Shown here piece by piece: positions 14,894-45,922 of a stretch of DNA of 64,000 nucleotides. Every line of letters begins with the position of its first letter. Within the stretch, counting starts at the first letter, position 1. A program made the position numbers and the translations under genes. The stretch lies in assembly GCA_934148845.1 (NCBI GenBank), contig CAKPDH010000001.1:251963-315962 (forward strand). Direction: 5' to 3'. Under the pieces are notes generated by a model. It had not been told where the DNA came from. It saw nothing but the letters and a program-made list of their open reading frames with translations, and searched no databases. The DNA is from an uncultured Bacilli bacterium. Its GTDB lineage: Bacteria > Bacillota_I > Bacilli_A > RF39 > UBA660.

Positions 14894-15035
14894 AAAAGGA
14901 AATAAAATACAAATGGTAACCTTATTTGTTTAAAATTATAACTCCACATAAATAATAATACAATTTTATAAAATAAAAGGCCAATGGCAAGCATACTTTA
15001 CTAATAGCCTAAATTATTAAAAGATATCTAATTTA

Positions 15036-15626: not shown

Positions 15627-16015
15627 ATTAACCCTCCAATCAATCTAAAAATTGATTGGATAAGGTGGTCCTCTAATAAATTTAGATTTTCCTAAAACAA
15701 AAAAAACACCGGGATCAAAAACCTTTTTAGGGGTTTTTGTCCCAGTGTTAAATATTTCATATTTAATTTTTTTGATTGGCATATTTAAAAGAGTATATCT
15801 TTTTAATATTAAAAATATACAGTTGTATAATAAAACAATAACATTCATCGACAGCATCACCTCTTAAGTAATGCCATTGTTGAAATAGCTATCCAAATTA
15901 TTCTTTTAAATATAACAAAAAAATATCACACTAGTAATCAAGGCATTGTCTTGTTACTTGGTATGATATTATATACTTTTTTTAAAATTATGCAATTTAA
16001 ACCATTATATAACTA

Positions 16016-18665: not shown

Positions 18666-18671
18666 ATAATA

Positions 18672-19865: not shown

Positions 19866-19873
19866 ATTTCCTC

Positions 19874-20866: not shown

Positions 20867-20874
20867 ATTCTCAC

Positions 20875-23158: not shown

Positions 23159-23170
23159 ATTTCCTCCTGT

Positions 23171-24409
23171 TTAATTTTTCTTATTATTTTCAAAATTTAA
23201 TTCCTTAATAAATCTTTTCATATATCCATCGAGTGAATATTTCTTATACATACTTGTTAAAATAGAATTATCATTATTTCTTTCCTTATCAAGTAATTTT
23301 TTTACATTAACAGATAAATTTTTTACTAAATTATCATCTTTCTCTAAAACAATTGCATATTCAGAAACATATTCAGGAATTCCACCTGAATTAGTTGTAA
23401 TTAAATTAGCACCGCAGCATAAAGCTTCTATCATAGTTAAACCAGCTGGTTCTTCCCACATAGATGGCATAATTGCAATATCTGCTGCATTATAATATTT
23501 AGGGATATTTTCTTGTTGAACATATCCAACAAAGACAACTTTATCTTTTAATTTATCTTTTATCAAATCATTAAGCTTATTATGATATTCATCTTTTATA
23601 TTTGAAGAATGCATTAAGCCACCAACAATTAACAATTTAAATTTTTCATTTGAAATTAAATTTAAAGCTTCTAAAATTTTATCAATACCCTTTTCATAAG
23701 ATAATCTACCAACAAATAATAAAATTTTTTCATCATCTTTTATATTGTATTTATATCGTAAATCTTGACAAAATTTTTCATCATTTCTAACACAAAACTT
23801 ACTTGTATCAATACAATTATATAGTGTATGAATTTTATTTTTATCTATTGGACCAATTGGGTTAGATGAAGATAAAATCTCATTTCCAACAAAATCACTT
23901 ACACACAAATAACCATTACAATTTTCAAAAACACTTTTACAATTCATATTAACTCTTGGTATATTATGTAAATGATAATAATATTCACCTTTATATTTAG
24001 ACTTTTTAATTATTAGTGCTAAAGGAATGTTATTTTCCAAAACCACCTTATCGAATGTCTCTTTTTTTAATATTTTAGAAGATTTACTTATATAATATAA
24101 CAAAGAAAAAATTGTTTTATATGAACTTGCTTTCTTTTTTTTAAAGAAAATTTTAATAAATTTAAATAACAAAAAATCAAAAAATTTTAAAATTTTAGGT
24201 ACTTTTATCCATATAAATTCTACATTATTATATTGTTCAGCTTTTGTTTGAGCGTCTTTATCGTAAAATGATACAACCTTTAAATCACATTCTTTATTAA
24301 TAGAGTTTTGTTCAACTAAATGTTCTATTAAAATTGGAACAGCGCCATCTTTCACAGCAGGTACAGGATACCCACCATTTGAATCAGCAGTAAAAATACA
24401 AACTTTCAT
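23171..24409 (-). CDS. Glycosyltransferase family 4
   Basis: EEPAGLTMIEALCCGANLITTNSGGIPE. Confidence 0.85.
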   Translation of the reverse strand: MKVCIFTADSNGGYPVPAVKDGAVPILIEHLVEQNSINKECDLKVVSFYDKDAQTKAEQYNNVEFIWIKVPKILKFFDFLLFKFIKIFFKKKKASSYKTIFSLLYYISKSSKILKKETFDKVVLENNIPLALIIKKSKYKGEYYYHLHNIPRVNMNCKSVFENCNGYLCVSDFVGNEILSSSNPIGPIDKNKIHTLYNCIDTSKFCVRNDEKFCQDLRYKYNIKDDEKILLFVGRLSYEKGIDKILEALNLISNEKFKLLIVGGLMHSSNIKDEYHNKLNDLIKDKLKDKVVFVGYVQQENIPKYYNAADIAIMPSMWEEPAGLTMIEALCCGANLITTNSGGIPEYVSEYAIVLEKDDNLVKNLSVNVKKLLDKERNNDNSILTSMYKKYSLDGYMKRFIKELNFENNKKN

Positions 24410-24418
24410 AAAAACCGC

Positions 24419-25534
24419 CTATTTAATCAAATTAATATATATATCATTTAATTTTTGTGCTTCATCTTTAATATTAAAACCATTACTAGAAATTTCCTTT
24501 TTAGTATTTTGTCTTTTAAATTTACTAACGTCTTCTAATATAATATTAGCCCATTCTTGTGTTGGTTTACATAATGACATAAATTTAGCTGAATCTAATA
24601 CTTTTGTTTCTTTAGTCATATCATAAGAAAAAATACACAGCAAACCATTAGCTTGTGCTTCAACTCCAACAACTGGTAATCCCTCATATAAGCTAGGTAG
24701 TAAAAATACATCCATAGCGTTATACAACTCATTTACATCTTCTCTTTGGCCTAAAAATTTAACATATTTTTCTAATTTTAGATTTTTAACTTTCGCTTTA
24801 ATTTCTTTCATTAAAGGACCTTGTCCTATTAATAATAAAATTGAATCCTTATTTTTTTTATGTACTTCATTAAAAATATCAATTAAAAATCTATGATTTT
24901 TTTGTTCAACAAATCTCCCTACATGGCCTATTACTAAAGTACTATCTTTAACTTTTAATTCTTTTCTTTTTTTATTTCTTACTTTCTCATCATATTTAAA
25001 TTTGTCTAAATCTATTGCATTATTAAGTAAATAAACATTTCCCATATCATATTCTTTATTCCCAAACAACCACCTACCAGCAAGTTCAGAACAGCACATA
25101 TAATCTGTTGCGAATAACTTACTAAAAGGTCTAAGTACTTGTTTTAATAAATTTTTCTTTTTTTCTTTTTTATTAGTAGTACTATGACTATGGGCTATCC
25201 TAACAGGTACTTTAGCACATTTCGCAGCAAATAAAGAAAACACTGATAACGCATTAATATGTGAATGAACTATTTTATAATTACCTTCCTTTAACACTTT
25301 TTTTAGTTCTTTATGATACTTAAATACTTTTTGATAGGGTGGTACTAATATTACTTTACCACCTAATTTTTTTATTTCATCATATGGTATATTAGTAGAA
25401 TCAGAATCGCATATAAAATCAAATTGTATTTTAGAACGATCTATATGCCTATAATAATTCATAACTACAGCTTCTACTCCACCGCCTACCCATTTTCCAA
25501 TAATTTGTGCAACGCGCACTGGTTTTGTATTCAA
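24419..25534 (-). CDS. Glycosyltransferase family 4
   Basis: YEGLPVVGVEAQANGL. Confidence 0.85.
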   Translation of the reverse strand: MNTKPVRVAQIIGKWVGGGVEAVVMNYYRHIDRSKIQFDFICDSDSTNIPYDEIKKLGGKVILVPPYQKVFKYHKELKKVLKEGNYKIVHSHINALSVFSLFAAKCAKVPVRIAHSHSTTNKKEKKKNLLKQVLRPFSKLFATDYMCCSELAGRWLFGNKEYDMGNVYLLNNAIDLDKFKYDEKVRNKKRKELKVKDSTLVIGHVGRFVEQKNHRFLIDIFNEVHKKNKDSILLLIGQGPLMKEIKAKVKNLKLEKYVKFLGQREDVNELYNAMDVFLLPSLYEGLPVVGVEAQANGLLCIFSYDMTKETKVLDSAKFMSLCKPTQEWANIILEDVSKFKRQNTKKEISSNGFNIKDEAQKLNDIYINLIK

Positions 25535-25551
25535 AATAGCACACTCCTTAA

Positions 25552-26205
25552 TTACTTAGCCCCGTTTCTCATTATTACTACTTTAATAGTTTTAAATATA
25601 ATTTTAACATCAAGCATTAAACTATAATTGTTAGAATAAAACTGTTCTAATTCTAATCTTTTTTTAAAGGATATATCACTTCTTCCATTTACTTGCCAAT
25701 AACCTGTAAGTCCTGGTTTAGTTGCAACTATATCATTATACGAATCTGCCATATCTTCTTTTTCACGAGGCAAATATGGTCTATTACCAACGAAAGCCAT
25801 ATCCCCTTTAAGTATATTTATAAACTGCGGTACTTCATCTAATGAAGTTTTTCTTAAAAATTTACCTACTTTTGTAATTCTTGGGTCATCTTTTATTTTT
25901 TTATTTAATTTATATTCTTCTCTATATTTTTTCTTTCTCAATAGTTTTTTTAATTCAATATCTGCATTTGGTACCATGCTTCTAAATTTATATAATTTAA
26001 ATATTTTACCATTTTTACCTATTCTCTCTTGTGAATAGAATATACTATCATGATCACCATTTATAATACTTATAATTTTAACAATAAGTGTAAGTGGCAT
26101 TAATACAAATATTCCAAGTATACCTACTATAACGTCAAAAAATCTTTTAACAAAGTAAAAGATATGCTTACTAAAAACAATTTCATTATTGGAAACATTT
26201 TCCAT
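25552..26205 (-). CDS. Initiating undecaprenyl-phosphate sugar phosphotransferase (bacterial sugar transferase, short WbaP/CpsE type)
   Basis: One TM segment, then KPGLTGYWQVNGRSD, the Bac_transf signature. Confidence 0.85.
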   Translation of the reverse strand: MENVSNNEIVFSKHIFYFVKRFFDVIVGILGIFVLMPLTLIVKIISIINGDHDSIFYSQERIGKNGKIFKLYKFRSMVPNADIELKKLLRKKKYREEYKLNKKIKDDPRITKVGKFLRKTSLDEVPQFINILKGDMAFVGNRPYLPREKEDMADSYNDIVATKPGLTGYWQVNGRSDISFKKRLELEQFYSNNYSLMLDVKIIFKTIKVVIMRNGAK

Positions 26206-26305: not shown

Positions 26306-27028
26306 TTACTTAAGTATTAATTGTTTGTTTGTATCTATACTATAGCTATAATTTAATAATTTAAAGAAACATTCAGAATTTAAAAGTGTTATTTCAAATT
26401 CTTCTTTAGTTACTTTTAATTTACTGAATAAATAATCTAATTTATGTGGTATTTTAATATTATTTACAAGTTCAAATTCATATAGATCTATTTGTTCTTT
26501 AATATCTGTTTTATTCTTATATAAGTATGAAAATTCTCCTTTATTTATTAATTCTATATTCATAAGTTCACTTGGTATAGATAATATATTTTTATATTTT
26601 ACATTATTTAAATCTTTACTCATATAACTTTTTGGTACCAAAAAGTTATAGCAATATCTATAACATTCCATATCACTATCATATACATATGTTTTGATAG
26701 GATTTGCATATCTATAAAATCCTCTTAAATATTTATTTACTATATTATTTCTTGTTATGATTTCATCGCTTATAGGAAAGCTATTAAATTTAATATCTTG
26801 ATGGGTTAAACAATATTCATTTTTTTTATTAATAAACTCATCTATATCCATTTCTCTTTCACTATCAAGTTTAACACTTTTCTCAAATAAATCAGTTTCA
26901 AAATCAAAAAATTCTATTCCTCTTCTTTTTATTATATTTCTTTTATATTGTTCTATTTCTCTATAATTTGGTTTTAGACAATATATACTTAAAGTATTAT
27001 TATCATTAATTTTATATATTGTAGTCAT
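26306..27028 (-). CDS. Hypothetical protein, paralog A of a tandem pair
   Basis: 240 aa. Shares blocks with the upstream ORF (TLSIYCLKPN and LSIPSELMNIELINKGEFSYLYKN). Overlaps it by 17 nt. Confidence 0.6.
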   Translation of the reverse strand: MTTIYKINDNNTLSIYCLKPNYREIEQYKRNIIKRRGIEFFDFETDLFEKSVKLDSEREMDIDEFINKKNEYCLTHQDIKFNSFPISDEIITRNNIVNKYLRGFYRYANPIKTYVYDSDMECYRYCYNFLVPKSYMSKDLNNVKYKNILSIPSELMNIELINKGEFSYLYKNKTDIKEQIDLYEFELVNNIKIPHKLDYLFSKLKVTKEEFEITLLNSECFFKLLNYSYSIDTNKQLILK

Positions 27029-27626
27029 TCTTTAATTCCTTTCTTTTACTTTCTTGTTTTAAATTATTTTTTATTTTAAAGAAATATTCAGATTCATCAT
27101 TAGATAAATCTAAATTATCTATAGAAATACTTGTTACATATTTTAAAGTAAATAAATTTATAAGCTCATTAACATCTATATTATTTTCATATATATATTT
27201 AAACTTAGATTTTAAAATTAATTCTAAATTCATAAGATTATCAGGAATAGAAATAATATTATTAAATTCTACATAAGCTCTGGTAATGTTTATATCAAGA
27301 GGTACCAATAAATTTAAATTTTTATCTTTCATTTTTACTAAAGTGTAGCTTGTATATCTTAAGTTTATATAATCAGAAATCATTTTATCTTTTAATTCTT
27401 GATTAGTGTTAGTACTACTACATAAATTAATATCACTTATATCTATACCATTTAATAAATCAAGAGACTCTCTTAAACTATTTGTTTTATAATTATAAAA
27501 TATATTATTATTTCTTTTATAATCTAAAATTAAATTTTGTCTATATGAACTTATAGCATTTAAATTAGGTATTAAATCATAAACAGATACAGTATCAGCA
27601 TCATTTGATTTTATTATTTTAATCAT
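27012..27626 (-). CDS. Hypothetical protein, paralog B of the tandem pair
   Basis: 204 aa. TVSVYDLIPN and ISIPDNLMNLELILKSKFKYIYEN match paralog A. Confidence 0.6.
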   Translation of the reverse strand: MIKIIKSNDADTVSVYDLIPNLNAISSYRQNLILDYKRNNNIFYNYKTNSLRESLDLLNGIDISDINLCSSTNTNQELKDKMISDYINLRYTSYTLVKMKDKNLNLLVPLDINITRAYVEFNNIISIPDNLMNLELILKSKFKYIYENNIDVNELINLFTLKYVTSISIDNLDLSNDESEYFFKIKNNLKQESKRKELKNDYNI

Positions 27627-28182: not shown

Positions 28183-29064
28183 TCATACTAATTCATATTC
28201 TCTAGAAATAATTCTCCCATCAGAACAATATTTAATAACATACTCATTATCCTGTTTACAAATGATAATACCTACTGTGTCATTTTCTTCAATTGTTTTA
28301 ATATTTTTATCAATATAATTCATATAAGTCATAATCTGACCAGTATGTTCTTTCTTGAGTTCTGTAACCTTTAATTCTACTACTACATAACATTTATACT
28401 TAATATTATATAGAAGTAAGTCTATATAGTTATATCTATCATTTAACTTAATGGGATACTCACTTTTAATAAATGTAAATCCATTTCCTAATTCATCTAA
28501 AAAATTTTCGATATCTTCCAAAATTAATTTTTGTAATACTTTCTCTGAAAATATATCATAGTTATTGCTATTTTTAATCAAAATTGGATTCTTTACGAAA
28601 TCAACAATATTAGATTCTTTTTGCTCTATTAATTTATTTTTAGTGAATTCCGGAAGTCTTTCATATTCATTCAATTTTATTCTTTTTCTTAACTGTCTAA
28701 TAGATAGATTATTTAATTCAGTTATTTTAATATAGTATTGAAATTTATTATCATCAAACCAAAGAATTTCACAATAATGACTCCAACTTAATTTGGCAGA
28801 CAGTGTCTGCACTTTTTCATTCAACTCATAAAATTTTAACATTAACCATAGATTTCTCTTACTATAACCCTTACCTAATTCATATGTTAATCTCTTCGAA
28901 TATTCTTTTATTATTCCTTCTCCATAATGATTACCTGCTTCACTTAACATTCTTCCAACATTGTAATATGCATCCAAATCACTCTTATTAATTGAATAAC
29001 TTTTAACTTTTCTATTTATTTCATCATTTATTAATTCATTTTTAATTTCATTATAATAGTTCAT
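28183..29064 (-). CDS. DUF1016/YhcG-family PD-(D/E)XK nuclease
   Basis: N-terminal helical domain plus a C-terminal ...IDLLLYNIKYKCYVVVELKVTE... PD-(D/E)XK core. Confidence 0.7.
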   Translation of the reverse strand: MNYYNEIKNELINDEINRKVKSYSINKSDLDAYYNVGRMLSEAGNHYGEGIIKEYSKRLTYELGKGYSKRNLWLMLKFYELNEKVQTLSAKLSWSHYCEILWFDDNKFQYYIKITELNNLSIRQLRKRIKLNEYERLPEFTKNKLIEQKESNIVDFVKNPILIKNSNNYDIFSEKVLQKLILEDIENFLDELGNGFTFIKSEYPIKLNDRYNYIDLLLYNIKYKCYVVVELKVTELKKEHTGQIMTYMNYIDKNIKTIEENDTVGIIICKQDNEYVIKYCSDGRIISREYELV

Positions 29065-29075
29065 ATTACTCCTTT

Positions 29076-29666
29076 CTATGAACTACAAGTCTCAATTTTC
29101 AATTTATAATTTTTAATTTTAAACATAATACTACCATCTTGATCTGTTCTATATATTTTTGAATCACTCAAATTATTTAATACTTCTTTATTGGAATGAC
29201 CGTATCTGTTGTTTTTGCCAACACTAATAATGGAATAATTTAGATTTATTTCATTTATAAATTCTTTACTACTACTTGTTTTACTTCCATGATGACCAAT
29301 TTTTAATACATCAATACCAGATATATTATATTTATTTAATATGTCTTTCTCTTTTTCTACTCCAGCGTCTCCCATAAACATAAACTTATAACCATCAAGT
29401 TCAGTATAAATAACATTTGAATTATCATTTTCATTATCATATTCTTTTGTTTGTAAAAAATATAGTTTGTTATTATCTATATTTAATTTTTTAATACATG
29501 AATAATATTTTATTTTCTTTTTATCTAGTACTTTGATTAATTCTTTTTCTAATTCATTAAACTCTCCACAATTAAATATTACATTATCTACTTTAAAATT
29601 ATTTACTAAATTAATAGATTCTCCCATATGATCAAAATCGCCGTGTGGTGACATAAGTTTATGCAT
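29076..29666 (-). pseudogene. Duplicated 3' fragment of comEC (metallo-beta-lactamase domain)
   Basis: 196-aa ORF HGDFDHMGESINLVNNFKV...GHHGSKTSS. It is near-identical to the C-terminus of 31366..32472, with 100% DNA identity over 29297..29578 against 31585..31866. Confidence 0.75.
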
Positions 29667-29730
29667 ATGGATTTAATCAAAGAAAAAGAACTATCAAGTT
29701 GATGGTCCTTATATGATGTATCATAAAATA

Positions 29731-30450
29731 TCATTGTAACCTATTTTTAATTAATTGTTTAATATTTGAATCTTTTATTTTTTCAATTTGATCTTCAATT
29801 GAAGGATAATCATTATATCTAACTATCTTTGCTTCTGATTTATATCTATCGTGGCTAATCAGATCAATAGTCGGAGATTTTAAAGCTATATTAATTATTT
29901 TAAAATAGTACTCTTTTTCGTGTTCACTTTTTGAGTTCAAATATCTAAAAACAAAATATATGAATGAATCCATTTCATTTTTCAATATTTTCCAGTCTAA
30001 TTTAGGATTTTTATATACTATTAAATTTGTTTCATAAAATTCAGGTTCTACAGGTAAAACTGTAAAAAAAGGTTCACTAGAAACACCAATATTCCAGTTT
30101 GGATTATACATTTCACTAATTATAATATCTTTATACAATCTTTTAAAAACAGATCCATTGTATAGTTCAGAGTTTATAATAAAAATTATATTTCTACACA
30201 AATCAAAGTTCACACACAATTGAGTATTATCAACATCGTTTTCAATAATGCTTGCCATTAAATTTAAATCATCAACTCCATACTTTTTGTAAATATTATC
30301 AATCTTTTCTAAATAATGATTTCTTTCATCTGATTTTTTAAACTCATCATCTAATTCTTTTCTTGCAGCCATCTGATTATAATATTCAATCATATAAAAG
30401 TATTCACAAAGTTTATTAAAATCATTTATTTTTCTTATTAAAGTTTCCAT
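29731..30450 (-). CDS. Hypothetical protein (cargo of the comEC-duplication insertion)
   Basis: 239 aa with no recognisable motif. Confidence 0.55.
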   Translation of the reverse strand: METLIRKINDFNKLCEYFYMIEYYNQMAARKELDDEFKKSDERNHYLEKIDNIYKKYGVDDLNLMASIIENDVDNTQLCVNFDLCRNIIFIINSELYNGSVFKRLYKDIIISEMYNPNWNIGVSSEPFFTVLPVEPEFYETNLIVYKNPKLDWKILKNEMDSFIYFVFRYLNSKSEHEKEYYFKIINIALKSPTIDLISHDRYKSEAKIVRYNDYPSIEDQIEKIKDSNIKQLIKNRLQ

Positions 30451-30521
30451 AAAATCTCACTCCAATTAAAGATTATTATAACATAATATTATATAAACCG
30501 TACACGTATATATTAATACTT

Positions 30522-31349
30522 TTAATTTATAGTCTTTAATATCTTATTTTCTTTTTCTAACTCCTTCAAACTTTTCTTTGGTGTAAGCAAATTTTCAGGC
30601 ATAGTCCTATGATTTTTTTTAATTACCTTTCGAATATTTTTACCTATATTATAATGAGTTTTATTTGCATTATTTTCTCCTATAATATTATCTTCTCTCA
30701 ATGCTGCCTCTGTTTGAGTGATTCTAAACAAGTTAGCCCCTAATTCTTCACTACCCATATTATCTAAAATTTCTTCTCTATATCTTAAACCTTTTCTTTT
30801 GGCTATATCATTTGCAGTTTCTCCATTATATAGACCTTTATAACCACTATTATGAAACTTATCAAAGTTTTTAACTCCTGCATTTCTAGCTGCAATATTT
30901 AAAAAATAATTCCCTTTTTTAGTCAAATCTCTTTGATATAATCTTTTCTCATCTTCTGTTAGTTCATGATACTCTTTTTCAGAAAGTTCTTGTTTCCTTG
31001 TTTGAATAGCAAAGTAAGTTTGACCTAAAGCTACCGTTTTCTTTTTAGGATTAGCATTTTGAACAATTAAATAGCATATGTATCTAGATAATTTATAATC
31101 TTTAATTAATTCTTCTTTACCTTTACCAGTTTTTATTGGCTTCCTGACTTCGGGAAGCCAATATGAATCATCATTGATGCTATTTCTATAAGATATTACC
31201 GCTTTTTTGATTACATTATCAAAATTTTCCCACTTACTATATTCAAGTAATGGCATTAATTCTCGCGCAAACCAATATTCGTTGCCAAACTCATCTATAT
31301 GTTTAATATCTTCAAATATTTTTTCAGTATATTCTTTTATTTCATTCAT
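30522..31349 (-). CDS. dinD: DNA-damage-inducible protein D (DinD family, BRO-N/KilA-like N-terminus)
   Basis: FARELMPLLEYSKWENFDNVIKKA...LSRYICYLIVQNANPKKKTVALGQTYFAIQTRKQE matches the remembered E. coli DinD blocks (SARELAPLLDYRDWRNF...LSRYACYLVVQNGDP...GQTYFAIQTRR). Confidence 0.75.
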   Translation of the reverse strand: MNEIKEYTEKIFEDIKHIDEFGNEYWFARELMPLLEYSKWENFDNVIKKAVISYRNSINDDSYWLPEVRKPIKTGKGKEELIKDYKLSRYICYLIVQNANPKKKTVALGQTYFAIQTRKQELSEKEYHELTEDEKRLYQRDLTKKGNYFLNIAARNAGVKNFDKFHNSGYKGLYNGETANDIAKRKGLRYREEILDNMGSEELGANLFRITQTEAALREDNIIGENNANKTHYNIGKNIRKVIKKNHRTMPENLLTPKKSLKELEKENKILKTIN

Positions 31350-31365
31350 TTTATTAATCTCCTTT

Positions 31366-33360
31366 CTATTGGCTACAAGTTTTAATTTTTAATTTATTAT
31401 TTTTAATCTTAAATATAATACTTCCATCTATGTCTGTTCTATATATTTTTGAATTACTTAGATTATTCAAGACTTCTTTATTAGGATGTCCATAACGATT
31501 ATTCTTTCCAACACTAATTATTGAGTACTTTGGGTTTGCCTCATTTATAAAAGACTTACTACTGCTTGTCTTACTTCCATGGTGTCCAATTTTTAATACA
31601 TCAATACCAGATATATTATATTTATTTAATATGTCTTTCTCTTTTTCTACTCCAGCGTCTCCCATAAACATAAACTTATAACCATCAAGTTCAGTATAAA
31701 TAACATTTGAATTATCATTTTCATTATCATATTCTTTTGTTTGTAAAAAATATAGTTTGTTATTATCTATATTTAATTTTTTAATACATGAATAATATTT
31801 TATTTTCTTTTTATCTAGTACTTTGATTAATTCTTTTTCTAATTCATTAAACTCTCCACAATTAAATACCACGTTTTTTACCTTAAAATTATTTACTAAA
31901 TTAATTGCTTCTCCCATATGGTCAAAATCTCCATGTGTAATTATAAGATAGTTTATTCTCTTTATACCATTACTTTTTAAATAACTTATTGTATTATCAA
32001 TTATATTTTTATTATACACTCCTCCTGTATCTATTAATATATTACTTTTATTTAATTTAACAAAAGTAGAATCTCCTTGCATTACGTCTAAGTATGTAAC
32101 AAAGGAATCTTTTTTAAATAGATTAATATTATTGTGAATTAATATTGTAATAAAAAGAAGTAATATATAAATATATTTTTTTCTTATAAATTTATATAAT
32201 ATGAAAGTAATTAAAATATAATAATATATTATAAAAAATATATTTATTTTAGATAATATTATTTCTATTTTATAGTTTGATATAAATAAGTTTAATTGTT
32301 CTAATATATTTATTAAATATATGTATAAATTATCTAATATAGGTATAAATAATACTAAAATAGCCATAGGAAATATTATAATTGATATAAGTGGTACAAA
32401 TATCATATTATTAAATATAGTAAGAAGATTTATACTAAAATAATTATTAATTAATATAGGTATACTAGACATAAAAGCTATTAAAGATGTAATAAATATC
32501 TTTTTTATATATGTATTACATCTTCTAATTAATAAGTTAAATATAATTAAATAAAATGATACGATATAACTAAATTTAAAGCCTATATTATATATACTAA
32601 AAGGATTTATTATTATTGCAATAGTAAAACATAATATAAATATTTTATAATTTTTTATATTAAAATTTAGTATTCTATTAAATGTATAAAGTATAAAGAA
32701 TAATAAAGAGCGTATTACTGATAATGAAAAACCAGTAAGAAATGAAAATATAAATAAAAATATTATAGTTATAATATAGTTTATATTACCTTTTTTAATT
32801 TTATTTAAAATAAATAATATAATAGTTGATATTAAAGATATATGACTACCTGATATTGAAAATAAATGGCTTATGCCATTTATTCTATATGAAGTTTTAA
32901 TATTTTTTTTATATAATTATTATAACCTAGTATAAATGAGTATAAATATTCACGTGTTTTTAATTTATCTATTCTTTTTATTATATATTTTTTTAATTCA
33001 TATAATAATGATGTATTTTTCTTTAATATAGTTATATTATCTGCATGCATCTTATAATAAGTTTTTTTACTTAACATATATTTTTTATAATTAAATAAAT
33101 TAAATATACTATTTTCTTCATATGAAGATAAAGTTCCACTTGCTTTAATTTTATCTCCTAAGTTAATATTCATATTTGATTTATTAAAGTATACTCTAAC
33201 ATTTTCTTTATTTTTAACTGTATATATTATATTTTTATCACTTACTTCTATATTTGATACATATCCTATTACATACCTAGTATCTAAGTTATAATTACTA
33301 TCTACCTTTGTATATTTAATTATATATATTAAAGAAAATACTAAGAGAATTAGATAAAAT
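31366..33360 (-). pseudogene. comEC: comEC (DNA internalisation channel), apparently disrupted
   Basis: All three ComEC domains are present: the N-terminal DUF4131-like region (...MNINLGDKIKASGTL...), the competence domain (HLFSISGSHISL) and the MBL domain (HGDFDHMG...GHHGSK). The reading frame shifts by -1 after the T8 run at 32903..32910. No ATG, GTG or TTG start lies upstream of MNINL. Confidence 0.65.
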
Positions 33361-33363
33361 ACA

Positions 33364-34065
33364 TTAGAGTTTAATATAATCTTTAATTTTTGAATAAAGT
33401 TTATCCCCTATACCAGAGACATTTTTAATATCTTCTATATTTTTAAATTCTCCATTCTTTTCTCTATATTCTATAATAGCCTTAGCCTTAGTTTCTCCAA
33501 GATATGGTATATTAATTAAATCTTCTACTGTACAAGTATTAATGGATACTAAAGCACTTTTTACGTCATTATCTAAATTATCACTAGTACCATTTGTATT
33601 AACAGTATCATCTTTATTAATACAAGCATCATTTATATTATCAGGACATACACATTCATATTCAATATATATAATTTCTTTATCTTGCTTTTTATATTTT
33701 TCTACTTCGTCATTAGAATATATTATTATAATCATTTCATCGGTTATTTTTTTGCTTAAATTAATATACTCTGTATTAGCGCCATCTATAAGTCCACCCG
33801 ATAATTTTATTACATCAATTATTCTACTATCTTTTGCAAGCTCATATACTCCAGGCTTTTTTACAAAGCCTTTTATATCTACTTTTAATAATTCTGGTTC
33901 TTTATTTTCTACACTTGTTATATTTTCTATATTAGTATTATCTAATTCTTTAGTATCTTCTACTTTTCCTTGTACATCTATAACTACAAATAATAATATC
34001 ACTAAAATTAATATTATTAATATAAATAATTTATATTTATCTAAATAGTATTTTATTTTATTCAT
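33364..34065 (-). CDS. comEA: ComEA (DNA receptor; SLBB plus tandem HhH)
   Basis: TM anchor, then GFVKKPGVYELAKDSRIIDVIKLSGG (SLBB), then C-terminal EDLINIPYLGETKAKAIIEYREKNGEFKNIEDIKNVSGIGDKLYSKI (HhH). Confidence 0.85.
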   Translation of the reverse strand: MNKIKYYLDKYKLFILIILILVILLFVVIDVQGKVEDTKELDNTNIENITSVENKEPELLKVDIKGFVKKPGVYELAKDSRIIDVIKLSGGLIDGANTEYINLSKKITDEMIIIIYSNDEVEKYKKQDKEIIYIEYECVCPDNINDACINKDDTVNTNGTSDNLDNDVKSALVSINTCTVEDLINIPYLGETKAKAIIEYREKNGEFKNIEDIKNVSGIGDKLYSKIKDYIKL

Positions 34066-34127: not shown

Positions 34128-34160
34128 ATGCAAAAAAAGTGATAAAAATCACTTTTTTAA
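34128..34160 (-). terminator. Intrinsic terminator hairpin (aagtgat-tttt-atcactt) plus a T-tract
   Basis: Minus strand reads aaaaaagtgatttttatcactttttttgc. It lies at the 3' end of the GC-enriched ORF-free region. Confidence 0.5.
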
Positions 34161-34770
34161 TGGCTTTAATACAGTTAATCTTGCGTCATAGGTCAAGTTG
34201 GATTTCCCTAAATCTTACTCATCGTTACCAATAAAGCGGTTCCCCTTTAAAAGATTTAATACAAAGTATTACTTGATTACCACTCAGTACGCACTGCAAT
34301 CCTATACTAATTCACTCTAGGAGATTTCCTCACCAGTTATTTATTATTAATTCTTTTTTGCAAATAACATTTCAAATTGCATTCTTATAGATTCTAGCTA
34401 TAAACTTATAAGAATGTTAATCAATTATCCCTATTACTCACTCAAGACTAGCTACACTACCCATAACTTTCATCACGAGGTAGGTTTAATCCTATTTCGT
34501 ATTAGATCCATCAGTTTGTTCGTATAGGTCTAACACAAGAATAGGTCTCCACGGATGGTGGGTCATTTACATATGCCATTATGGATGCCCAACATCCTCA
34601 TTTCCAGCACTCACCCCAATCTGGGCGAAAGAAGCAAGCACAAGAAGTTTCACAGGTGTGCTATTGAACGGATTTTTAGCCCCGCCTTCATAATAAATAT
34701 TCTGACTAGAATAATGTGCCACCACGACTAAAAGTATATCAAATTTACACATATTTGTCAAATTGAATAC
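34161..34770 (-). ncRNA. Candidate large structured non-coding RNA of about 600 nt; identity unresolved
   Basis: Roughly 38-40% GC against about 24% around it. No ORF of 60 aa or more apart from one spurious listed ORF. Multiple local hairpins (for example ggatgCCCAAcatcc, cagtGCGTactg). Ends at an intrinsic terminator just upstream of comEA. Confidence 0.3.
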
Positions 34771-34807: not shown

Positions 34808-35308
34808 CTAATTTAAATACTTATTTATTTCTGAATCAATAAGCTTAACGAATTTTTTATTATTACTTTTATACTTTTTAGGCTTAAAAGATTTTATTTT
34901 ATCTAAAACTAAATCCAAATGTTCAAAATCATCTAAAGATAAAATATACCCTGCATCTTTAAAATTTTCAATTATTTGTAATTGATGATCATTAGTATGT
35001 TCCTTATATTTAGAAAGACGTGCTGCTGCTATTACTTTTTTATTTTTATTTAATCCAGATATTATGGAACCTACCCCACCATGTGTTATTAATATATCAC
35101 ATTTTGATATAAGATTTTCATATTCATCCATTGGTATTAAATCAAATATTTTCATTTTTTTAGATTTAAAATCACTACAGCTTCCTGCTTGTACAATAAC
35201 TTCATCTTTTATATTTCCGTTATTTATTTGCTTTTCAACTGCAGAAAGTAACCTATAAAATTTTTTATCTTGAGTACCTAATGTTACTAAAATCATTAAA
35301 AAATCCAA
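34808..35308 (-). CDS. Alg13-like glycosyltransferase subunit (Cps14G/EpsF-like; GT28 C-terminal domain)
   Basis: 166 aa with ...CDILITHGGVGSI..., partnered with an adjacent Alg14-like domain. Confidence 0.65.
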   Translation of the reverse strand: MDFLMILVTLGTQDKKFYRLLSAVEKQINNGNIKDEVIVQAGSCSDFKSKKMKIFDLIPMDEYENLISKCDILITHGGVGSIISGLNKNKKVIAAARLSKYKEHTNDHQLQIIENFKDAGYILSLDDFEHLDLVLDKIKSFKPKKYKSNNKKFVKLIDSEINKYLN

Positions 35309-37146
35309 CCTCCATATATTGCTTTAGGATAAAGCTTCATCATCTCTTCCCACTGTACTATAAAAGTATCAGCTATAGGAGAAATAATTTTACCTGCTAC
35401 AGTTTTTGTGTTTCTATTTGCAAATGTTTCAATATAAATTATTTTACTTCCAAAAACTTTGCCTATATAACACATAGGAACTGCAGTATGTGTTCCTGTT
35501 GTAACTATAACTTTAGGATTAATTTTTAAATATAAAATTAAACTTTTAATTATGTTATAGCTAAATTTAAAGATATATGTAAAAAGATGTAATTTAGTAC
35601 CATATACTAAATAGTAGACATTACTATATTTATCTTTTAATGTTTTATTTGATTTAGTCTTTTCAGTTACTATATAACTATCATATTTATTAAATAACTG
35701 TTTTAATTGAAGTAATTCATTCAAATGTCCACCTGTTGAAGATATAAACATAACTTTGTTATTAGTATCACTAATATATATATAATTAATTAACATTCCA
35801 TAAAGTAGTAAAAATAATGGGAAAATTTGTGTATCATATATTGCATTCTCAGCTATAGCATTCACTGCTATAAATCCCATAGTTATTAAACTACATATAA
35901 CACTTAAATTATATACTTCATTCTTTTTACTAAAATTGCTTAAAAATAATCTTGCAGGTTTAAATACTAGCATAATTAAAAATAGAATAAAAAACATTAA
36001 TGAAAAAGTACTAACTTCTGCATATAATAATACAAATGATGAATGTGGGTGTGTATACGGTAAATTATATTCTGGATGAAGTTTTTTAAATTCACTACTC
36101 TTCATATAATCAATATATGAACCAAATCCAACACCAGTATATTTATTTTCATTTGCTATAACTTTCGCTATATGAGCAAATTCTTCTCTATGTTGAAGTG
36201 AATAATCTTTATAATCAGAATCATCATCATAATCTTTATAATCATTTGGATTTTGATTATCTTTATCCTTATTAGAATTTATATCTGGCAAAAAGCTTAA
36301 AATGTTTTCAAATTTTGAAAAAATAGCTATTGCATCATCACAAGATTTAATTGCAAGCTTACTAGCGCCTGGAATATATACTGTAAGAAGTATCATAGTT
36401 AAAATTAATAGAAGAGTTTTAAAATTTATTGACATTTTATATAAAAATATTATTGCTAAAATTAATATTGCAAAAAATACTAGTAAAGCAGATCTTGTAA
36501 ATGTTAATAAAATATTTACATACGTGATAGTAGATGCAATAAATAATAATATAGTAATTAATTTATTTTTTGATTTACAGAAAGCATAAAATATTAATAC
36601 AAAAAATAAATTAATAAATATACCATAATAAATAGTATTAAAGAATGTTGTTGATATCCTACCTGTTGCACCCTCATAATATGAAATACCAGCCTTAAAT
36701 ATATCTTTATCAAATAAGTATTCTAATATTCCAATGCCACCTAAAATTAACAAGGATATAATAATTACTTTAAAAAATATTAAATATTCTTGTTTTTTAA
36801 AATTATACTTATATGCTATAAAAAATAAACAATATGCAACTATGAATTTTAAAAATGTATAAATACTTACTATAAAATTTCTTGTTGCAGATAAAGATGG
36901 TATAGCAAATATTATAAAAAGAAGATATATAAATGTTATTAATTTATAATTATTTTTATTTATGCTTATTTTCTTTTTATATAACATTATAAAAAAGATT
37001 AAAATAAATAGAAAACTAAGACCAATTCTAACAGGTATACCCTTAAAATTTGTTACTGATTTAGGTATAAATATAAGTAGTAATATATATATTAAAGCAG
37101 AATAAAATAACATATTATGAGTTTTTAGTTTTTGTTTTAAATTCAT
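35296..37146 (-). CDS. Fusion of an O-antigen-ligase/Wzy_C-like multi-TM domain with a C-terminal Alg14-like (Cps14F/EpsE-like) domain
   Basis: N-terminal 450 aa has about 10-12 TM segments plus TFTRSALL and YTHPHSSFVLLYAEVS (Wzy_C-like). C-terminal 150 aa (MFISSTGGHLNELLQL...VTTGTHTAVPMCYIGKVFGSKIIYIETFAN) is Alg14-like. Confidence 0.6.
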   Translation of the reverse strand: MNLKQKLKTHNMLFYSALIYILLLIFIPKSVTNFKGIPVRIGLSFLFILIFFIMLYKKKISINKNNYKLITFIYLLFIIFAIPSLSATRNFIVSIYTFLKFIVAYCLFFIAYKYNFKKQEYLIFFKVIIISLLILGGIGILEYLFDKDIFKAGISYYEGATGRISTTFFNTIYYGIFINLFFVLIFYAFCKSKNKLITILLFIASTITYVNILLTFTRSALLVFFAILILAIIFLYKMSINFKTLLLILTMILLTVYIPGASKLAIKSCDDAIAIFSKFENILSFLPDINSNKDKDNQNPNDYKDYDDDSDYKDYSLQHREEFAHIAKVIANENKYTGVGFGSYIDYMKSSEFKKLHPEYNLPYTHPHSSFVLLYAEVSTFSLMFFILFLIMLVFKPARLFLSNFSKKNEVYNLSVICSLITMGFIAVNAIAENAIYDTQIFPLFLLLYGMLINYIYISDTNNKVMFISSTGGHLNELLQLKQLFNKYDSYIVTEKTKSNKTLKDKYSNVYYLVYGTKLHLFTYIFKFSYNIIKSLILYLKINPKVIVTTGTHTAVPMCYIGKVFGSKIIYIETFANRNTKTVAGKIISPIADTFIVQWEEMMKLYPKAIYGGWIF

Positions 37147-37147
37147 C

Positions 37148-38107
37148 TTAATTACCTCCTAATCTATACATTATTTTAGCTATTAACTTATTAAATATAA
37201 GTAAGTATAAGCCCTTTTTATTAGTATAAAAATATTTATTTTTTTTATAATTTGGAAAATTATTTTTTACATTTTTTATTGCATCATTTACGGCTTTATC
37301 ATACATTTTTTTATCTTTAAAATAAGTAGCTCTTTTTATGAAAGTTGCATATAAATATCTAACATAGCAATATTCTAATTCATTTTTATAATCAAAAAAT
37401 AAGTTATTATCTTTATAATATTTTATTATTCCATTCCAATTATCAATATAGTCCCATAAACGTTTATCAAATGTTTTAGTAATAGCCCCATCTCTTTGTA
37501 CATAATTAACAAATGGTTTTTTTACTACACCAATAGAATTTATATATGGATATAGTCTATATATAAACTCAACATCCTCAAACCAAACTTTTTCTTTAAA
37601 AAATATTTTATTATCAAATAGTGATTTTTTATATATTTTATTCCAACATGCTGGATATATAGATATCATGCTTCTTTTTATATCTTCTTTAGTAGTTAAA
37701 TCTTTTTCTATATTTGAATATGCATTAACAGTATGGTCCTCATAAACATATTTTAAGTCACATACTACTACATCAAAATCTCCTGAAATTGCTTTATTAT
37801 ACATATTTAAATACATATCGCTATCTATATAATCATCACTATCTAAAAAAGCTATATAACTTCCACTAGCATGCTTTAAGCCATAGTTTCTGGCACTAGA
37901 AAGTCCTCCATTTTCTTTAATATATGATTTAATATTTTTATAATTTTTCTTATATTTATCTATAATTTTTTGACTATTATCTTTAGTACCATCGTTAACA
38001 ATAATTATTTCAATATCATTTAAAGTTTGATTTAATATACTGTCTAAACATTTTTCCAAATATTTTTCAACATTATAAACAGGTACAATAACACTTAATT
38101 TTACCAC
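37148..38107 (-). CDS. Glycosyltransferase family 2
   Basis: LSVIVPVYNVEKYLEKCLDSILNQT...VNDGTKD...DSDD. Confidence 0.85.
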   Translation of the reverse strand: MVKLSVIVPVYNVEKYLEKCLDSILNQTLNDIEIIIVNDGTKDNSQKIIDKYKKNYKNIKSYIKENGGLSSARNYGLKHASGSYIAFLDSDDYIDSDMYLNMYNKAISGDFDVVVCDLKYVYEDHTVNAYSNIEKDLTTKEDIKRSMISIYPACWNKIYKKSLFDNKIFFKEKVWFEDVEFIYRLYPYINSIGVVKKPFVNYVQRDGAITKTFDKRLWDYIDNWNGIIKYYKDNNLFFDYKNELEYCYVRYLYATFIKRATYFKDKKMYDKAVNDAIKNVKNNFPNYKKNKYFYTNKKGLYLLIFNKLIAKIMYRLGGN

Positions 38108-39057
38108 TATTTGCCACCCAATTTCTTTATAATTTTACAAGTATTTAGCATACCTTTTGACGCAAAAAAGCAAAATATTTTAAATTTATAGCTTTTCATC
38201 TTATAAATTACATTTTTTCTATAGTTTGGATAATTTTTTTTCATATATTTAGTTATATAAATACAATTTTTTTGTCCCTCATCAAAAGATAAAAATCTTA
38301 AATATGCACTATATAATAAATGTTCTATGTTTAAATATTCTAAGACAAAAAAGTATTTATCACTTCTTAATTTAAATTGTTCATTCAAATATTTCATTAT
38401 AATAAATATATCTTCCAATTTCTTAGAATATTTTTTTTGATTCATTGATGAATTATCTCTTATAACATAATAGTATAATTCTTGATCAATAAAAGAAATT
38501 TTTTTTGCATATATACCAAGTAGTGGTATTACTGCAAGATCTTCATATATACACTTTTCTTTAAAAAATATATTATTTTCTATAAAAAGTGACTTTTTAT
38601 ATAATCTACCAACAGGACCTGAGTGAGAAATCATATAATTAACATTATCATCATCACATAATTTATTGAAATTAACAAATTTTTCTTCATGTGATGAATA
38701 CTTTTTTATTAAATTACAAATAGAAATATCCGAATCATTTTCCTTCATAGAATTATATAGTTTCTCTATCATATCATTTTTTATATAATCATCACTATCT
38801 ACAAATGTAATAAGCGACCCAGTAGATAATTTTATTCCTAAATTACGTGCTGAGCCTTGACCACTATTTTTTATAGTTCTTACAACTAATCTAGAATCAC
38901 TTATTGAATCTAATACCTTTAAAGTATTATCAGTAGATCCATCGTTTATAACAATTACTTCAATATTTTTATATGTTTGATTTAATATACTATCTATACA
39001 TTTCTTAATTCTTTTTTCTTCATTATAAGCTGGAACAATAACACTAATTTTATTCAT
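38107..39057 (-). CDS. Glycosyltransferase family 2
   Basis: ISVIVPAYNEEKRIKKCIDSILNQTY...DSDD. Confidence 0.85.
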   Translation of the reverse strand: MNKISVIVPAYNEEKRIKKCIDSILNQTYKNIEVIVINDGSTDNTLKVLDSISDSRLVVRTIKNSGQGSARNLGIKLSTGSLITFVDSDDYIKNDMIEKLYNSMKENDSDISICNLIKKYSSHEEKFVNFNKLCDDDNVNYMISHSGPVGRLYKKSLFIENNIFFKEKCIYEDLAVIPLLGIYAKKISFIDQELYYYVIRDNSSMNQKKYSKKLEDIFIIMKYLNEQFKLRSDKYFFVLEYLNIEHLLYSAYLRFLSFDEGQKNCIYITKYMKKNYPNYRKNVIYKMKSYKFKIFCFFASKGMLNTCKIIKKLGGK

Positions 39058-39060
39058 AAA

Positions 39061-40059
39061 TCACCTTTTAAAGATTTCCCTTTTAATTATTCTTAAAAAA
39101 ACAAATAATTTATATCTAGTTTTACTAGTCTTTATTATTCTTTCCTTTTTTGGCATATTTAATATTACATTTGATTTTTTCCAATTTGGAAACTCATTAT
39201 TTAAAAACTTAAACATTTTATCAATATAACTATAATTATCACTAAATGAGCCTACCTTAATTAATGAAAGTAATCCTTTTTGTATTTGTAATACTGACAT
39301 TTCTTGTACTTGGTCATATATATTATTATAATCTTCTTTATCCTTTAAATAATTTACAACATCTTCTATTATAAAATAAATATCTTTATCTTTAACACTT
39401 ATAGTACAAGTCTCACCTGAATCATTTATTCTATAATAATATAAAGCTTTATCGACTTTAGAGATTTTTTTTGCTGAAGACAACGCCTTTATAACAAAAT
39501 TTAAATCCTCATACTTTAGTTTTTCTGGAAATTTAATATTTTCTATAAGAGATTTTTTATATAATTTATTCCAAGGACAATAAGCTACGGAATTAATTAT
39601 TAAAGGTTCTTTATATATTGATTTATTATATATTTTTATATCACCGCAAATTTTTTTTTCTTTATTTACATTATTAAATTTTATATAATCACATACAGCT
39701 ATATCTGAATTATTTTTAATTATACTTTCCATTAAAGATGAATACATATCATCTAAAACATAATCATCGCTATCTAAGAAGGCTATATAATCACCAGTTG
39801 AAAGATTTATACCTTTATTTCTAGTAGCACCTATACCAATGTTTTTTTGATCAATTATTTTAAATCTTGTATCACTTCCAACGTTATTTTTGATTCTTTT
39901 TAAAGTACTATCTTTTGATCCATCATTAATTATAATAAATTCAATATTTTTATATGTTTGCCTTTTTAAAGAATTAATACATTCATCAATATATTTTTCT
40001 ACATTATATGCTGGAACTATTACCGAAATTTTATTCTCATTCATTTTATCACCTAACAA
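39061..40059 (-). CDS. Glycosyltransferase family 2
   Basis: ISVIVPAYNVEKYIDECINSLKRQTY...DSDD. Confidence 0.85.
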   Translation of the reverse strand: MLGDKMNENKISVIVPAYNVEKYIDECINSLKRQTYKNIEFIIINDGSKDSTLKRIKNNVGSDTRFKIIDQKNIGIGATRNKGINLSTGDYIAFLDSDDYVLDDMYSSLMESIIKNNSDIAVCDYIKFNNVNKEKKICGDIKIYNKSIYKEPLIINSVAYCPWNKLYKKSLIENIKFPEKLKYEDLNFVIKALSSAKKISKVDKALYYYRINDSGETCTISVKDKDIYFIIEDVVNYLKDKEDYNNIYDQVQEMSVLQIQKGLLSLIKVGSFSDNYSYIDKMFKFLNNEFPNWKKSNVILNMPKKERIIKTSKTRYKLFVFLRIIKREIFKR

Positions 40060-42011: not shown

Positions 42012-42015
42012 TTCA

Positions 42016-44674: not shown

Positions 44675-44675
44675 T

Positions 44676-45905: not shown

Positions 45906-45922
45906 AAAATCTCCTTTTCTGT

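Follow-up and report, generated by a model that had tools for sequence, protein, structure and literature searches.

Organization of the comEC region

We analysed the competence gene comEC and the genes downstream of it in a 64,000-nucleotide stretch of DNA from an uncultured Bacilli bacterium (assembly GCA_934148845.1, contig CAKPDH010000001.1, positions 251,963 to 315,962; hereafter the window, with coordinates counted from its first nucleotide). All genes of the region, from comEA to yhcG, are encoded on the minus strand. The intact comEA gene (33364..34065) codes for a 233-aa protein with SLBB and HHH_3 domains (Pfam), and its last 32 nt overlap the proposed start of comEC. The comEC gene itself (31366..33395, with a proposed ATT start at 33395..33393) is full length except for one −1 frameshift at a run of eight adenines (A8; T8 on the plus strand) at 32903..32910, which lies within an in-frame A_AAA_AAA heptamer. 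Farther along the gene, the CA dinucleotide at 31934..31935, which belongs to the codon (CAT, 31935..31933) for the first His in the HGDFDH motif, forms the left edge of a cassette and coincides with what appears to be an attB-type crossover point. From this codon to its stop, comEC consists of a 3′ module (copy B, 31366..31935) encoding the C-terminal two thirds of the metallo-β-lactamase (MBL) domain.

A ribosome-binding site (RBS) directly after the comEC stop precedes dinD (30522..31349), which encodes a 275-aa protein with a Bro-N N-terminus. The next gene (29731..30450) specifies a 239-aa protein without a family match and occupies the variable cargo slot of the cassette. It is followed by a weak hairpin and a T-run, TTCTTTTTCTTTG (29678..29712), resembling a terminator at the cassette end, and by a motif of about 30 nt, ATTAAATCCATATGCATAAACTTATGTCACCA (29646..29677), which we call v2. 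This motif abuts a second His codon (CAC, 29645..29643) and, as discussed below, may be read as the left (P) half of an attP site of a large serine recombinase (LSR). The His codon opens copy A (29076..29645), an orphan comEC 3′ end that runs to its own stop; together with in-frame ATGs supplied by the v2 motif it makes up a 196-aa open reading frame (ORF) at 29076..29666. Another RBS, directly after the orphan stop, precedes yhcG (28183..29064; 293 aa), a DUF1016 PD-(D/E)XK nuclease gene. The cassette unit, composed of the 3′ end, dinD, the 239-aa gene, the terminator and the half-site, measures 2,290 bp (31935..29646).

Two of these genes were assigned by family matches. DinD matches the NCBIfam equivalog NF008573 with 306.3 bits (cutoff 242) over residues 3–270, and YhcG matches both PF17761 (DUF1016_N, 91.9 bits) and PF06250 (YhcG_C nuclease, 121.1 bits). 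PADLOC files the former as defence candidate PDC-S13 and the latter as PDC-S02. Searches of Pfam, NCBIfam, PHROGs and PADLOC returned no match for the 239-aa protein, whose homologues in other species (68–95% identity) are likewise encoded between comEC and holA. Since the yhcG family (F0) follows comEC in most related species, yhcG was probably the immediate neighbour of comEC before the cassette arrived.

Copies A and B form a direct repeat of about 570 nt with an offset of 2,290 nt. They align without gaps from their His codons (31935 in B, 29645 in A) through the stop codon and the following RBS (GGAG). The preliminary description of this DNA had reported a duplication of some 590 bp at 29076..29666; the duplication is real, but that span is the ORF, whereas the homology begins at 29645. 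Its observations that the copies bracket dinD and a second gene, and that they were homogenized recently, also hold: where it counted 282 identical base pairs we find a run of 283 nt (31586..31868 in copy B, 29296..29578 in copy A; that is, 31868..31586 pairs with 29578..29296). The flanks of this run are about 20% divergent, and the probability of such a run arising by chance is about 6e-25. The identity is therefore probably the product of later gene conversion between the two copies. Outside the run, 31 codon differences between the copies are synonymous and 14 are non-synonymous, suggesting that the copies diverged as functional gene ends under purifying selection and not as a gene and its decaying duplicate.

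Copy A is the displaced former 3′ end of comEC, and the comEC coding sequence is contiguous. The cassette brings a complete replacement 3′ end, so that the comEC frame continues to the stop at 31366 and is not inactivated by the cassette. The proposal that a dinD cassette interrupts comEC and thereby disables it accordingly has to be abandoned: the sole lesion of comEC is the slip in the A8 run.

The same arrangement in related species

We next asked how typical this organization is. A scan of species-representative genomes yielded 80 comEC loci, all from metagenome-assembled genomes (MAGs) of uncultured Bacilli, variously labelled Bacilli, Erysipelotrichaceae, Tenericutes, Clostridium sp. CAG:594, Mycoplasma sp. 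CAG:611 and Candidatus Coprosoma. Their ComEC proteins are 41–61% identical to that of the window. In many of these loci (denoted below by L numbers) a full-length comEC is followed, 1–2.3 kb downstream, by at least one comEC 3′ fragment that begins at residues 470–478 (residue numbers refer to a 666-aa ComEC working model; 10 must be added to count from the ATT codon). Of the related species loci, 53 contain 3 kb or more of downstream sequence, and 32 of these have such orphans; the arrangement is also common among relatives with an undamaged comEC. The locus, initially described as a one-off remodelling, is therefore one instance of a recurrent pattern, and the 3′ site of comEC is a clade-wide hot spot. 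Conservation of the arrangement across the genus is what the preliminary description had itself named as refuting its reading.

The gene that follows comEC or an orphan is nearly always yhcG-like (F0, about 293–296 aa) or dinD-like (F1, about 273–289 aa), and it starts 18–24 nt past the comEC or orphan stop or overlaps it. Next comes one variable gene, which may encode a GNAT acetyltransferase, a histidine phosphatase, a C39-like or MA-type peptidase, or a protein of no recognized family. The commonest layout is that of the window: comEC, dinD, a variable gene, orphan, yhcG. An 'empty site' in a conspecific strain was sought with the exact YhcG protein, and this search returned only the same arrangement. 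Contigs carrying the 239-aa gene family are mostly only 1–5 kb long; the repeated comEC ends appear to be places where assemblies of these organisms regularly break off.

One conspecific locus deserves separate mention. In L002/L010 (ERZ27287275 k141_211715, 15002..17170), yhcG is split into ORFs of 117 and 121 aa. After these come a gene of 271 aa, a third comEC fragment (residues 477–627), which is frameshifted, and finally spoIIGA-sigE. Arrays with three comEC ends thus exist within the species of the window.

A phage attachment site at the first His codon of HGDFDH

In some 30 species, all orphans begin at the same His codon, within 3 nt. Most are preceded by a hairpin and a T-run, in the same layout but with different stems, and then by a non-coding motif that abuts the His codon. 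The motif, about 26 nt long and ending in TCACCA, is of two types, v1 (TTCGACTTACTTTTTGACAATCACCA) and v2 (TCGTATGCATAAACGTATGTCACCA). The v2 version in the window reads CCATATGCATAAACTTATGTCACCA (within 29677..29646). Across the 80 loci the motif always lies on the comEC strand and is followed, with one exception (L095), by at least the first bases (CATGG...) of a comEC fragment.

A search of phage contigs with v1 gave two matches, L104 (on the same contig as L106) and L103. In L104, v1 is identical at 26 of 26 positions to the left arm of an attP site, a 54-nt inverted repeat TTCGACTTACT...CACCA-CA-TGGAGG...AGTAAGTCGAA (TTCGACTTACTTTTTGACAATCACCA-CA-TGGAGGTATGTGGTTAGTAAGTCGAA). When the positions are counted by hand, the CA of the His codon falls at the centre of this site. 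Directly beside it lies a gene for a 473-aa LSR, as shown by its Resolvase, Recombinase and Zn_ribbon_recom domains. The second match, L103 (IMGVR_UViG_3300029705_004143, position 1), stops exactly at the recombination core, ...CACCACATGG (...TCACCACATGG). Relatives of the L104 recombinase (65–73% identity), including those of L107–L110, have equivalent sites with other arms and the common core CCACATGG. The domain set of the L104 protein, an attP of about 50 bp with a central dinucleotide, and hybrid junctions are all features of LSR systems.

Both kinds of hybrid junction are found. Four contigs, L105 from IMG/VR and L191, L192 and L194 from metagenomes, contain attL junctions, in which the 5′ codons of comEC (...L-I-(I/L)-T|CATGG) are joined to the other arm of the phage site and then to the recombinase gene; in L194, ComEC residues 21–480 are matched by the sequence adjoining the junction. 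Junctions of the attR type are represented by the v1 orphans in 17 species loci, many of them identical to the phage arm. Phages of this family have inserted into comEC. Comparison of these junctions with the phage site marks the His codon of HGDFDH as the attB of the phages, and a v1 motif with its orphan as an attR-type junction. Integration would end ComEC after ...THG and a few phage-encoded residues.

For the window, which carries v2, we infer that the motif is likewise an attP half-site and that its junction is an attR-type scar. This reading is based on the position of v2, on the TCACCA|CA end that both motif types have in common, and on its likeness to the P arm of phage L107 (22 of 31 positions in a hand alignment, with TGCATAA at the same distance from the core). 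A search of phage contigs with v2 itself gave no match, and two hits to a looser pattern were judged to be chance matches.

Sequences resembling attR ends also turned up outside the clade. Two proviral contigs from other, higher-GC Firmicutes (GC about 0.40), L122 (IMGVR_UViG_3300006566_000383) and L130 (IMGVR_UViG_3300045988_168294), each carry a comEC 3′ fragment at one terminus or close to it. This fragment starts from T-H-T-D-x-D-H, is preceded by unrelated DNA and makes a probable attR end. The same metal-binding motif may thus be a phage attachment site well beyond the clade.

An exchanged 3′ module with a sharp breakpoint

Identity between the ComEC of the window and those of 53 full-length relatives is 25–58% up to about residue 465 and 73–93% from about residue 471 to the end. 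Mean pairwise identity behaves in the same way (0.38 upstream versus 0.77 in the module), and the highly identical part also spans stretches without an obvious catalytic role. Moreover, relatedness is discordant between the two parts. The species closest to the window upstream, L019 (0.57), has a module at 0.83, whereas the closest modules, those of L038, L058 and L055 (0.90–0.91; 0.89–0.91 at the nucleotide level), are attached to upstream parts that reach only 0.37–0.39. The orphans of L024, L025, L032, L045, L053, L057 and L065 are only 52–65% identical to the common module; they are mostly open ORFs, as expected of displaced native ends. The conservation of the module depends weakly on whether dinD or yhcG is adjacent (0.86 versus 0.82, p = 0.05), and module types do not cluster by the gene that follows.

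The breakpoint is sharpest within the species. Compared with L100 and L102, the window shows 0–1 mismatches per 60 nt over about 560 nt upstream of ...ATTACACATGG and 10–26 mismatches per 60 nt right after it, with the first difference directly after CATGG. Conspecific strains switch at the CA from about 0 to 25–35% divergence, and their cassettes differ as well, containing dinD and the 239-aa gene, yhcG' and a 233-aa gene, or a 250-aa and the 239-aa gene. The starts of the orphans in L100 and L102 are nearly identical to the current module of the window and not to its orphan, and the module of L099 is mosaic relative to that of the window. Taken together, these patterns indicate that the final third of ComEC acts as a module of its own, exchanged horizontally.

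Relatives of both the module and dinD are also encoded by phages. About 180 phage or provirus contigs in IMG/VR (L111–L190) encode stand-alone ComEC-type MBL proteins, which comprise a full MBL domain 30–40% identical to the module and 80–390 further open codons upstream. Such phage-borne paralogues of the ComEC nuclease appear to form a widespread family. Genes of the DinD family, 44–54% identical to that of the window, are present in about 40 phage or provirus contigs (L210–L255, IMG/VR), in several cases within a few nucleotides of the contig end (for example, L219, L225 and L235), which suggests that dinD is often a gene of prophage edges.

The start codon of comEC

The comEC frame contains no ATG, GTG or TTG before Met65 of our first working model. 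The absence of a canonical start noted in the preliminary description thus stands for these three codons, but the frame itself does not end there. It stays open upstream into the end of comEA (G-I-N-F-I-Q-K-L-K-I-I-L-N-S-N-V-F), and this extension aligns with the M/L-K-K-L-K-I-I-L N-termini of relatives. In the start column of 54 aligned sequences, TTG occurs 27 times, ATG 18 times and ATT four times, the window being among the last. The ATT of the window (33395..33393) is located 32 nt inside the end of comEA, 8 nt after a Shine-Dalgarno sequence, AGGGGA (33409..33404), and the same start region is found in conspecifics whose comEC is otherwise intact. Judging from this alignment, comEC probably starts at the non-canonical ATT at 33395 and spans 33395..31366. 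A second frameshift at the ATG at 33364 (T5 for T4) was considered and rejected: T4 is present in all conspecifics, including those with intact genes, and the conserved KLKIIL N-terminus runs on upstream to the ATT. Gene callers place the comEC start 74 residues too late, which results in calls of 602 aa.

A young frameshift in the A tract

The change of frame directly after T8 at 32903..32910, reported at the outset, was located in the minus-strand translation. The upstream comEC frame reads ...GYNNYIKK, then ILKLHIE* (GYNNYIKKILKLHIE), with the stop at 32882..32880, while the frame of the Competence domain (NIKTSYRINGISHLFSISGSH...) is in the −1 register relative to it. As predicted, a single added nucleotide (A9 instead of A8 at 32910..32903) rejoins the two into a continuous protein. 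The frame-corrected protein matches PF03772 (Competence, 143.5 bits) and PF00753 (Lactamase_B, 66.1 bits); it also has a partial match to PF13567 (DUF4131, 27.4 bits) that is below the 31.6 cutoff. It therefore has the domains of ComEC/Rec2, Competence and a C-terminal MBL, and is encoded downstream of comEA, though not in a single uninterrupted frame. Without the correction, translation would stop inside the Competence (channel) domain, and full-length ComEC would be lost or limited to the product of slippage on the heptamer.

Could the frameshift be a sequencing or assembly error, with comEC intact? Errors in homopolymer length are common. However, A8 is read in loci from at least seven different samples, covering several studies and assemblers and gathered through identical ComEA or the identical 239-aa protein, and the genes in the rest of the 64-kb window are densely packed, unbroken ORFs, so that an error is hardly credible. 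Conspecific strains reveal how the run arose. Three conspecific ComEC calls, 602–603 aa long and 97–99% identical over the first 477 residues, were recovered by a protein search. L100–L102 have AAAAGAAAA (I-K-E-N) at the tract and intact gene calls, L099 has A9 (I-K-K-N), and most relatives lack any run at this position. The ancestral sequence was in all likelihood AAAAGAAAA. The two alleles in conspecifics imply an order of events in which a G-to-A change would have converted AAAAGAAAA to A9, after which a slip to A8 would have shifted the frame. The frameshift is real, young and lineage-specific.

A related question is whether the tract acts as a phase-variable contingency switch, or whether the frameshift is leaky and the gene not dead. 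Both A8 and A9 alleles occur in the species, comEC has gathered no second lesion, and the slippery heptamer (X_XXY_YYZ) is in frame, so that a −1 slip on A_AAA_AAA (32903..32911) would yield exactly the restored IKKNIKTSY. Against this possibility, every assembly of the A8 lineage reads A8; the lone A9 strain differs elsewhere in comEC and downstream and so represents another lineage and not a switched clone; the run is missing in most relatives, with AAAAGAAAA as the ancestral sequence; and no stimulatory element was found, no search aimed at one having been made. We thus regard a switch or a still productive gene as rather improbable, although ribosomal or RNA-polymerase slippage by −1 may restore the ComEC frame to some degree. 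In this strain the outcome would be a recent, possibly leaky, loss of full-length ComEC.

Origin of the cassette

The reading that we favour, with a probability of roughly 65%, is that the first His codon of HGDFDH serves as the attB of temperate phages with LSRs, that the cassette was inserted at its CA, and that the A8 slip is a separate event. We infer that a recombinase installed the cassette. The 2,290-bp unit would have entered at the CA, pushing the old comEC end and yhcG downstream as an orphan preceded by a half-site, and gene conversion would afterwards have made 283 nt of both copies identical. How the unit travels is a more tentative matter. The most likely route, which we put forward with some reserve, is that a phage shuttles the cassette by means of stacked attR-type sites. 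Once a phage sits at the attB of an array, two sites of the attR type lie to its right, and excision through the distal one would pick up the cassette. On reaching a new host, the loaded phage would use its normal attP to integrate and would later leave by the proximal site, thereby depositing the cassette. Left behind would be the comEC 5′ part, CA, the module, dinD or yhcG, the cargo, the terminator, the P arm, CA and the native end. This route would account for the fixed junction, the missing integrase, the stacking of ends, the conservation of the module across species and the intactness of comEC. A plain prophage would leave comEC split, whereas the arrays have a whole comEC with a module end. 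Furthermore, in every orphan the phage DNA extends no farther than the outer edge of the half-site, as would be expected of a unit that keeps a working site and not of remnants of random deletions.

Several observations weigh against the favoured reading or its route. Neither the locus in the window nor any of the 80 related comEC loci contains a recombinase gene, and no match to the v2 motif of the window was found in the sampled phages. The predicted shuttle intermediate, with the module, dinD or yhcG and cargo beside attP, was not seen in recombinase-bearing contigs, where the informative loci are the four attL junctions and attP sites flanked by ordinary phage genes (L104/L106–L110, L196 and L197). 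A single-sequence search of phage contigs for the module found none, and a profile search of IMG/VR found phage MBL paralogues of at most 40% identity, together with two probable attR ends in other taxa; for the dinD and yhcG of the clade, phage contigs yielded only distant relatives. Direct recombination between attR and attB is not expected of an LSR, and since the P arm joined to the comEC arm is attR-like, a simple model in which the cassette integrates as a circle fails. Cargo genes, dinD or yhcG, and both motif types are combined in a shuffled fashion, which indicates that homologous recombination also reshapes the arrays. Finally, codon identity at conserved residues exceeds that of the upstream part only modestly (0.68 in the module versus 0.56); at such divergence this measure is uninformative and by itself no proof of recent transfer.

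An alternative explanation would be that the array is what is left of a defective transducing prophage. Aberrant excision would have taken the P arm, a comEC 3′ end and dinD or yhcG; entry would have been by homologous (Campbell-type) recombination within the matching comEC 3′ ends or by an illegitimate join anchored on homology, and the phage body would have been deleted later. The idea has several attractions. Phages of the family have the P arm right after the terminator of the late (endolysin) operon, as the cassettes have it after theirs; the 283-nt tract could trace the heteroduplex formed in a single crossover; the mosaic modules of different strains (L099 versus the window) attest to homologous exchange; and there is a precedent in Tn1207.1, a truncated, 7.2-kb defective comEC element, the complete copy of which resides within phi1207.3 (PMC4260502). 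On the other hand, random deletions would vary, yet in all orphans, from some 30 species, the phage DNA ends exactly at the outer edge of the half-site. No remnants of phage genes were recognized between dinD or yhcG and the cargo, and a crossover inside the module would not put the breakpoints exactly at the CA. On balance we consider such an origin unlikely. General homologous or duplicative recombination, which the preliminary description had proposed as the source of the junction, would have inserted the dinD cassette, duplicated the 3′ end and inactivated competence. It fits the direct repeat of about 570 nt that flanks dinD and its neighbour, and the recent identical tract of 283 nt demonstrates that the copies do recombine. 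Yet the cassette leaves the comEC frame uninterrupted, the arrangement is common among relatives with intact comEC, and the junction lies at one fixed dinucleotide in about 30 species and bears a phage attP half-site. In view of these facts, this explanation is very improbable.

Three other types of element were considered and set aside. A homing-endonuclease cassette built on the yhcG nuclease does not agree with junctions that carry an attP half-site, nor with dinD-type cassettes that have no recognizable nuclease. In the case of an integron, the gene upstream is comEA, no recombinase is encoded in the loci, and the cassettes end in a terminator and a phage half-site, not in attC. As for an orphan array of polymorphic toxins, the modules are the most conserved part of ComEC and the genes next to them, dinD and yhcG, are not immunity-like.

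Comparison with known systems

The closest parallels are streptococcal. The prophages phi1207.3/Tn1207.3 and phi10394.4 insert by means of a serine recombinase at a specific GA dinucleotide in comEC, and the defective element Tn1207.1 occupies the same site in pneumococcal celB (PMC4260502). As in those cases, the phages described here are joined to a truncated 5′ part of comEC, and the element is located at one dinucleotide inside the gene. The streptococcal crossover, however, is at GA and simply splits comEC, whereas here it is at the CA of the HGDFDH His codon and the gene is whole, with a replacement 3′ end and the old end stacked behind it.

The arrays also bring to mind two other types of tandem element. 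Staphylococcal cassette chromosome (SCC) elements, namely SCCmec and pseudo-SCC, form tandem arrays in rlmH/orfX and are moved by the LSRs CcrAB and CcrC; some units have no recombinase. Their repeats are about 15–20 bp long, and no more than a few terminal codons of the target gene are replaced. Common to both systems are the use of a conserved gene end as attB, arrays split by site repeats, a target gene that remains functional and recombinase-less units presumed to be moved in trans. Here, in contrast, the replacement extends over about 570 nt (189 codons), the old ends persist as intact orphan ORFs, and each repeat carries a phage attP half-site. The orphan C-terminal cassettes of rhs and cdiA are hypervariable toxin ends paired with immunity genes. 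The likeness consists in a full gene followed by promoterless 3′ fragments that start from a conserved motif, each with a small gene, and in new ends displacing old ones. The difference is that no part of the protein is better conserved than the ends described here (mean pairwise identity 77% versus 38% upstream) and that their junction includes a recombinase half-site.

The conflict between mobile elements and transformation ('chromosomal curing') is an established theme (bioRxiv 10.1101/2024.08.13.607808), and the Listeria comK prophage is a case of an element in a competence gene (PMC7397523). The phage family described here resembles competence-disabling elements in that it attaches in a competence gene and its integration truncates ComEC after ...THG. 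The arrays, unlike such elements, leave comEC whole, and would be an aftermath or a counter-move. Our literature search found no paper mentioning both comEC and DUF1016.

Other features of the window

Directly upstream of comEA lies a full-length gene for the OLE (Ornate Large Extremophilic) RNA (34144..34738, minus strand), which matches Rfam RF01071 with 367.6 bits over model positions 1–616 of 616. It accounts for the seemingly empty gap of 743 nt between comEA and a glycosyltransferase gene, in what is a very AT-rich genome from the human gut. Downstream of yhcG, at 26306..27626 (minus strand), two adjacent overlapping genes encode proteins of 204 and 240 aa that are mutual paralogues (family F19), neither of which has a match in Pfam, NCBIfam, PHROGs or PADLOC. 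The pair is present in the conspecifics L011 and L102, and other genes take its place in L002/L010.

The comE locus is flanked by two polysaccharide-synthesis clusters (35296..46957 and 16016..26205). These contain many GT2 and GT4 genes and encode a pyruvyl transferase as well as a 616-aa protein that matches both Wzy_C and Alg14. In the conspecific L100, the upstream cluster is swapped for a set consisting of GT_STM0557_N, GtrA, MBOAT and PIG-L, so the surface-polysaccharide locus is variable between strains.

Implications

For the strain alone the finding is an ordinary one: a young homopolymer slipped, and comEC was broken or dimmed. It was also already known that serine-recombinase phages insert in comEC. 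What appears to be new is that an uncultured gut clade shows this target and this phage family, that 189 codons of the gene are replaced, and that intact displaced ends are stacked with integrase-less cassettes bearing defence-candidate genes. It is conceivable, if doubtful at present, that the units represent an undescribed class of integrase-less mobile cassettes, each made up of one half of a gene-internal attB and one half of a phage attP, ferried between species by comEC-targeting LSR phages that would use stacked attR-type sites alternatively, and carrying a replacement gene end, a defence candidate (dinD or yhcG) and one variable cargo gene.

The exchanged end of ComEC is a warning against the use of comEC as a phylogenetic or strain marker. 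If a phage enzyme moves the cassettes in trans, this would be a new route for the spread of defence-candidate genes, and the sites would constitute a natural set of orthogonal attP/attB pairs with one core, perhaps useful to genome engineers. DinD has been reported as a modulator of RecA in E. coli. One may speculate that dinD, co-transcribed with a repaired comEC, would allow the cell to import DNA and yet blunt the recombination that deletes mobile elements. More than half of the sampled species stack displaced comEC ends at one dinucleotide. In these uncultured gut Bacilli, whose relatives include the CAG-594, CAG-611 and Coprosoma MAGs, the contest between phages and DNA uptake appears to have left a legible record.

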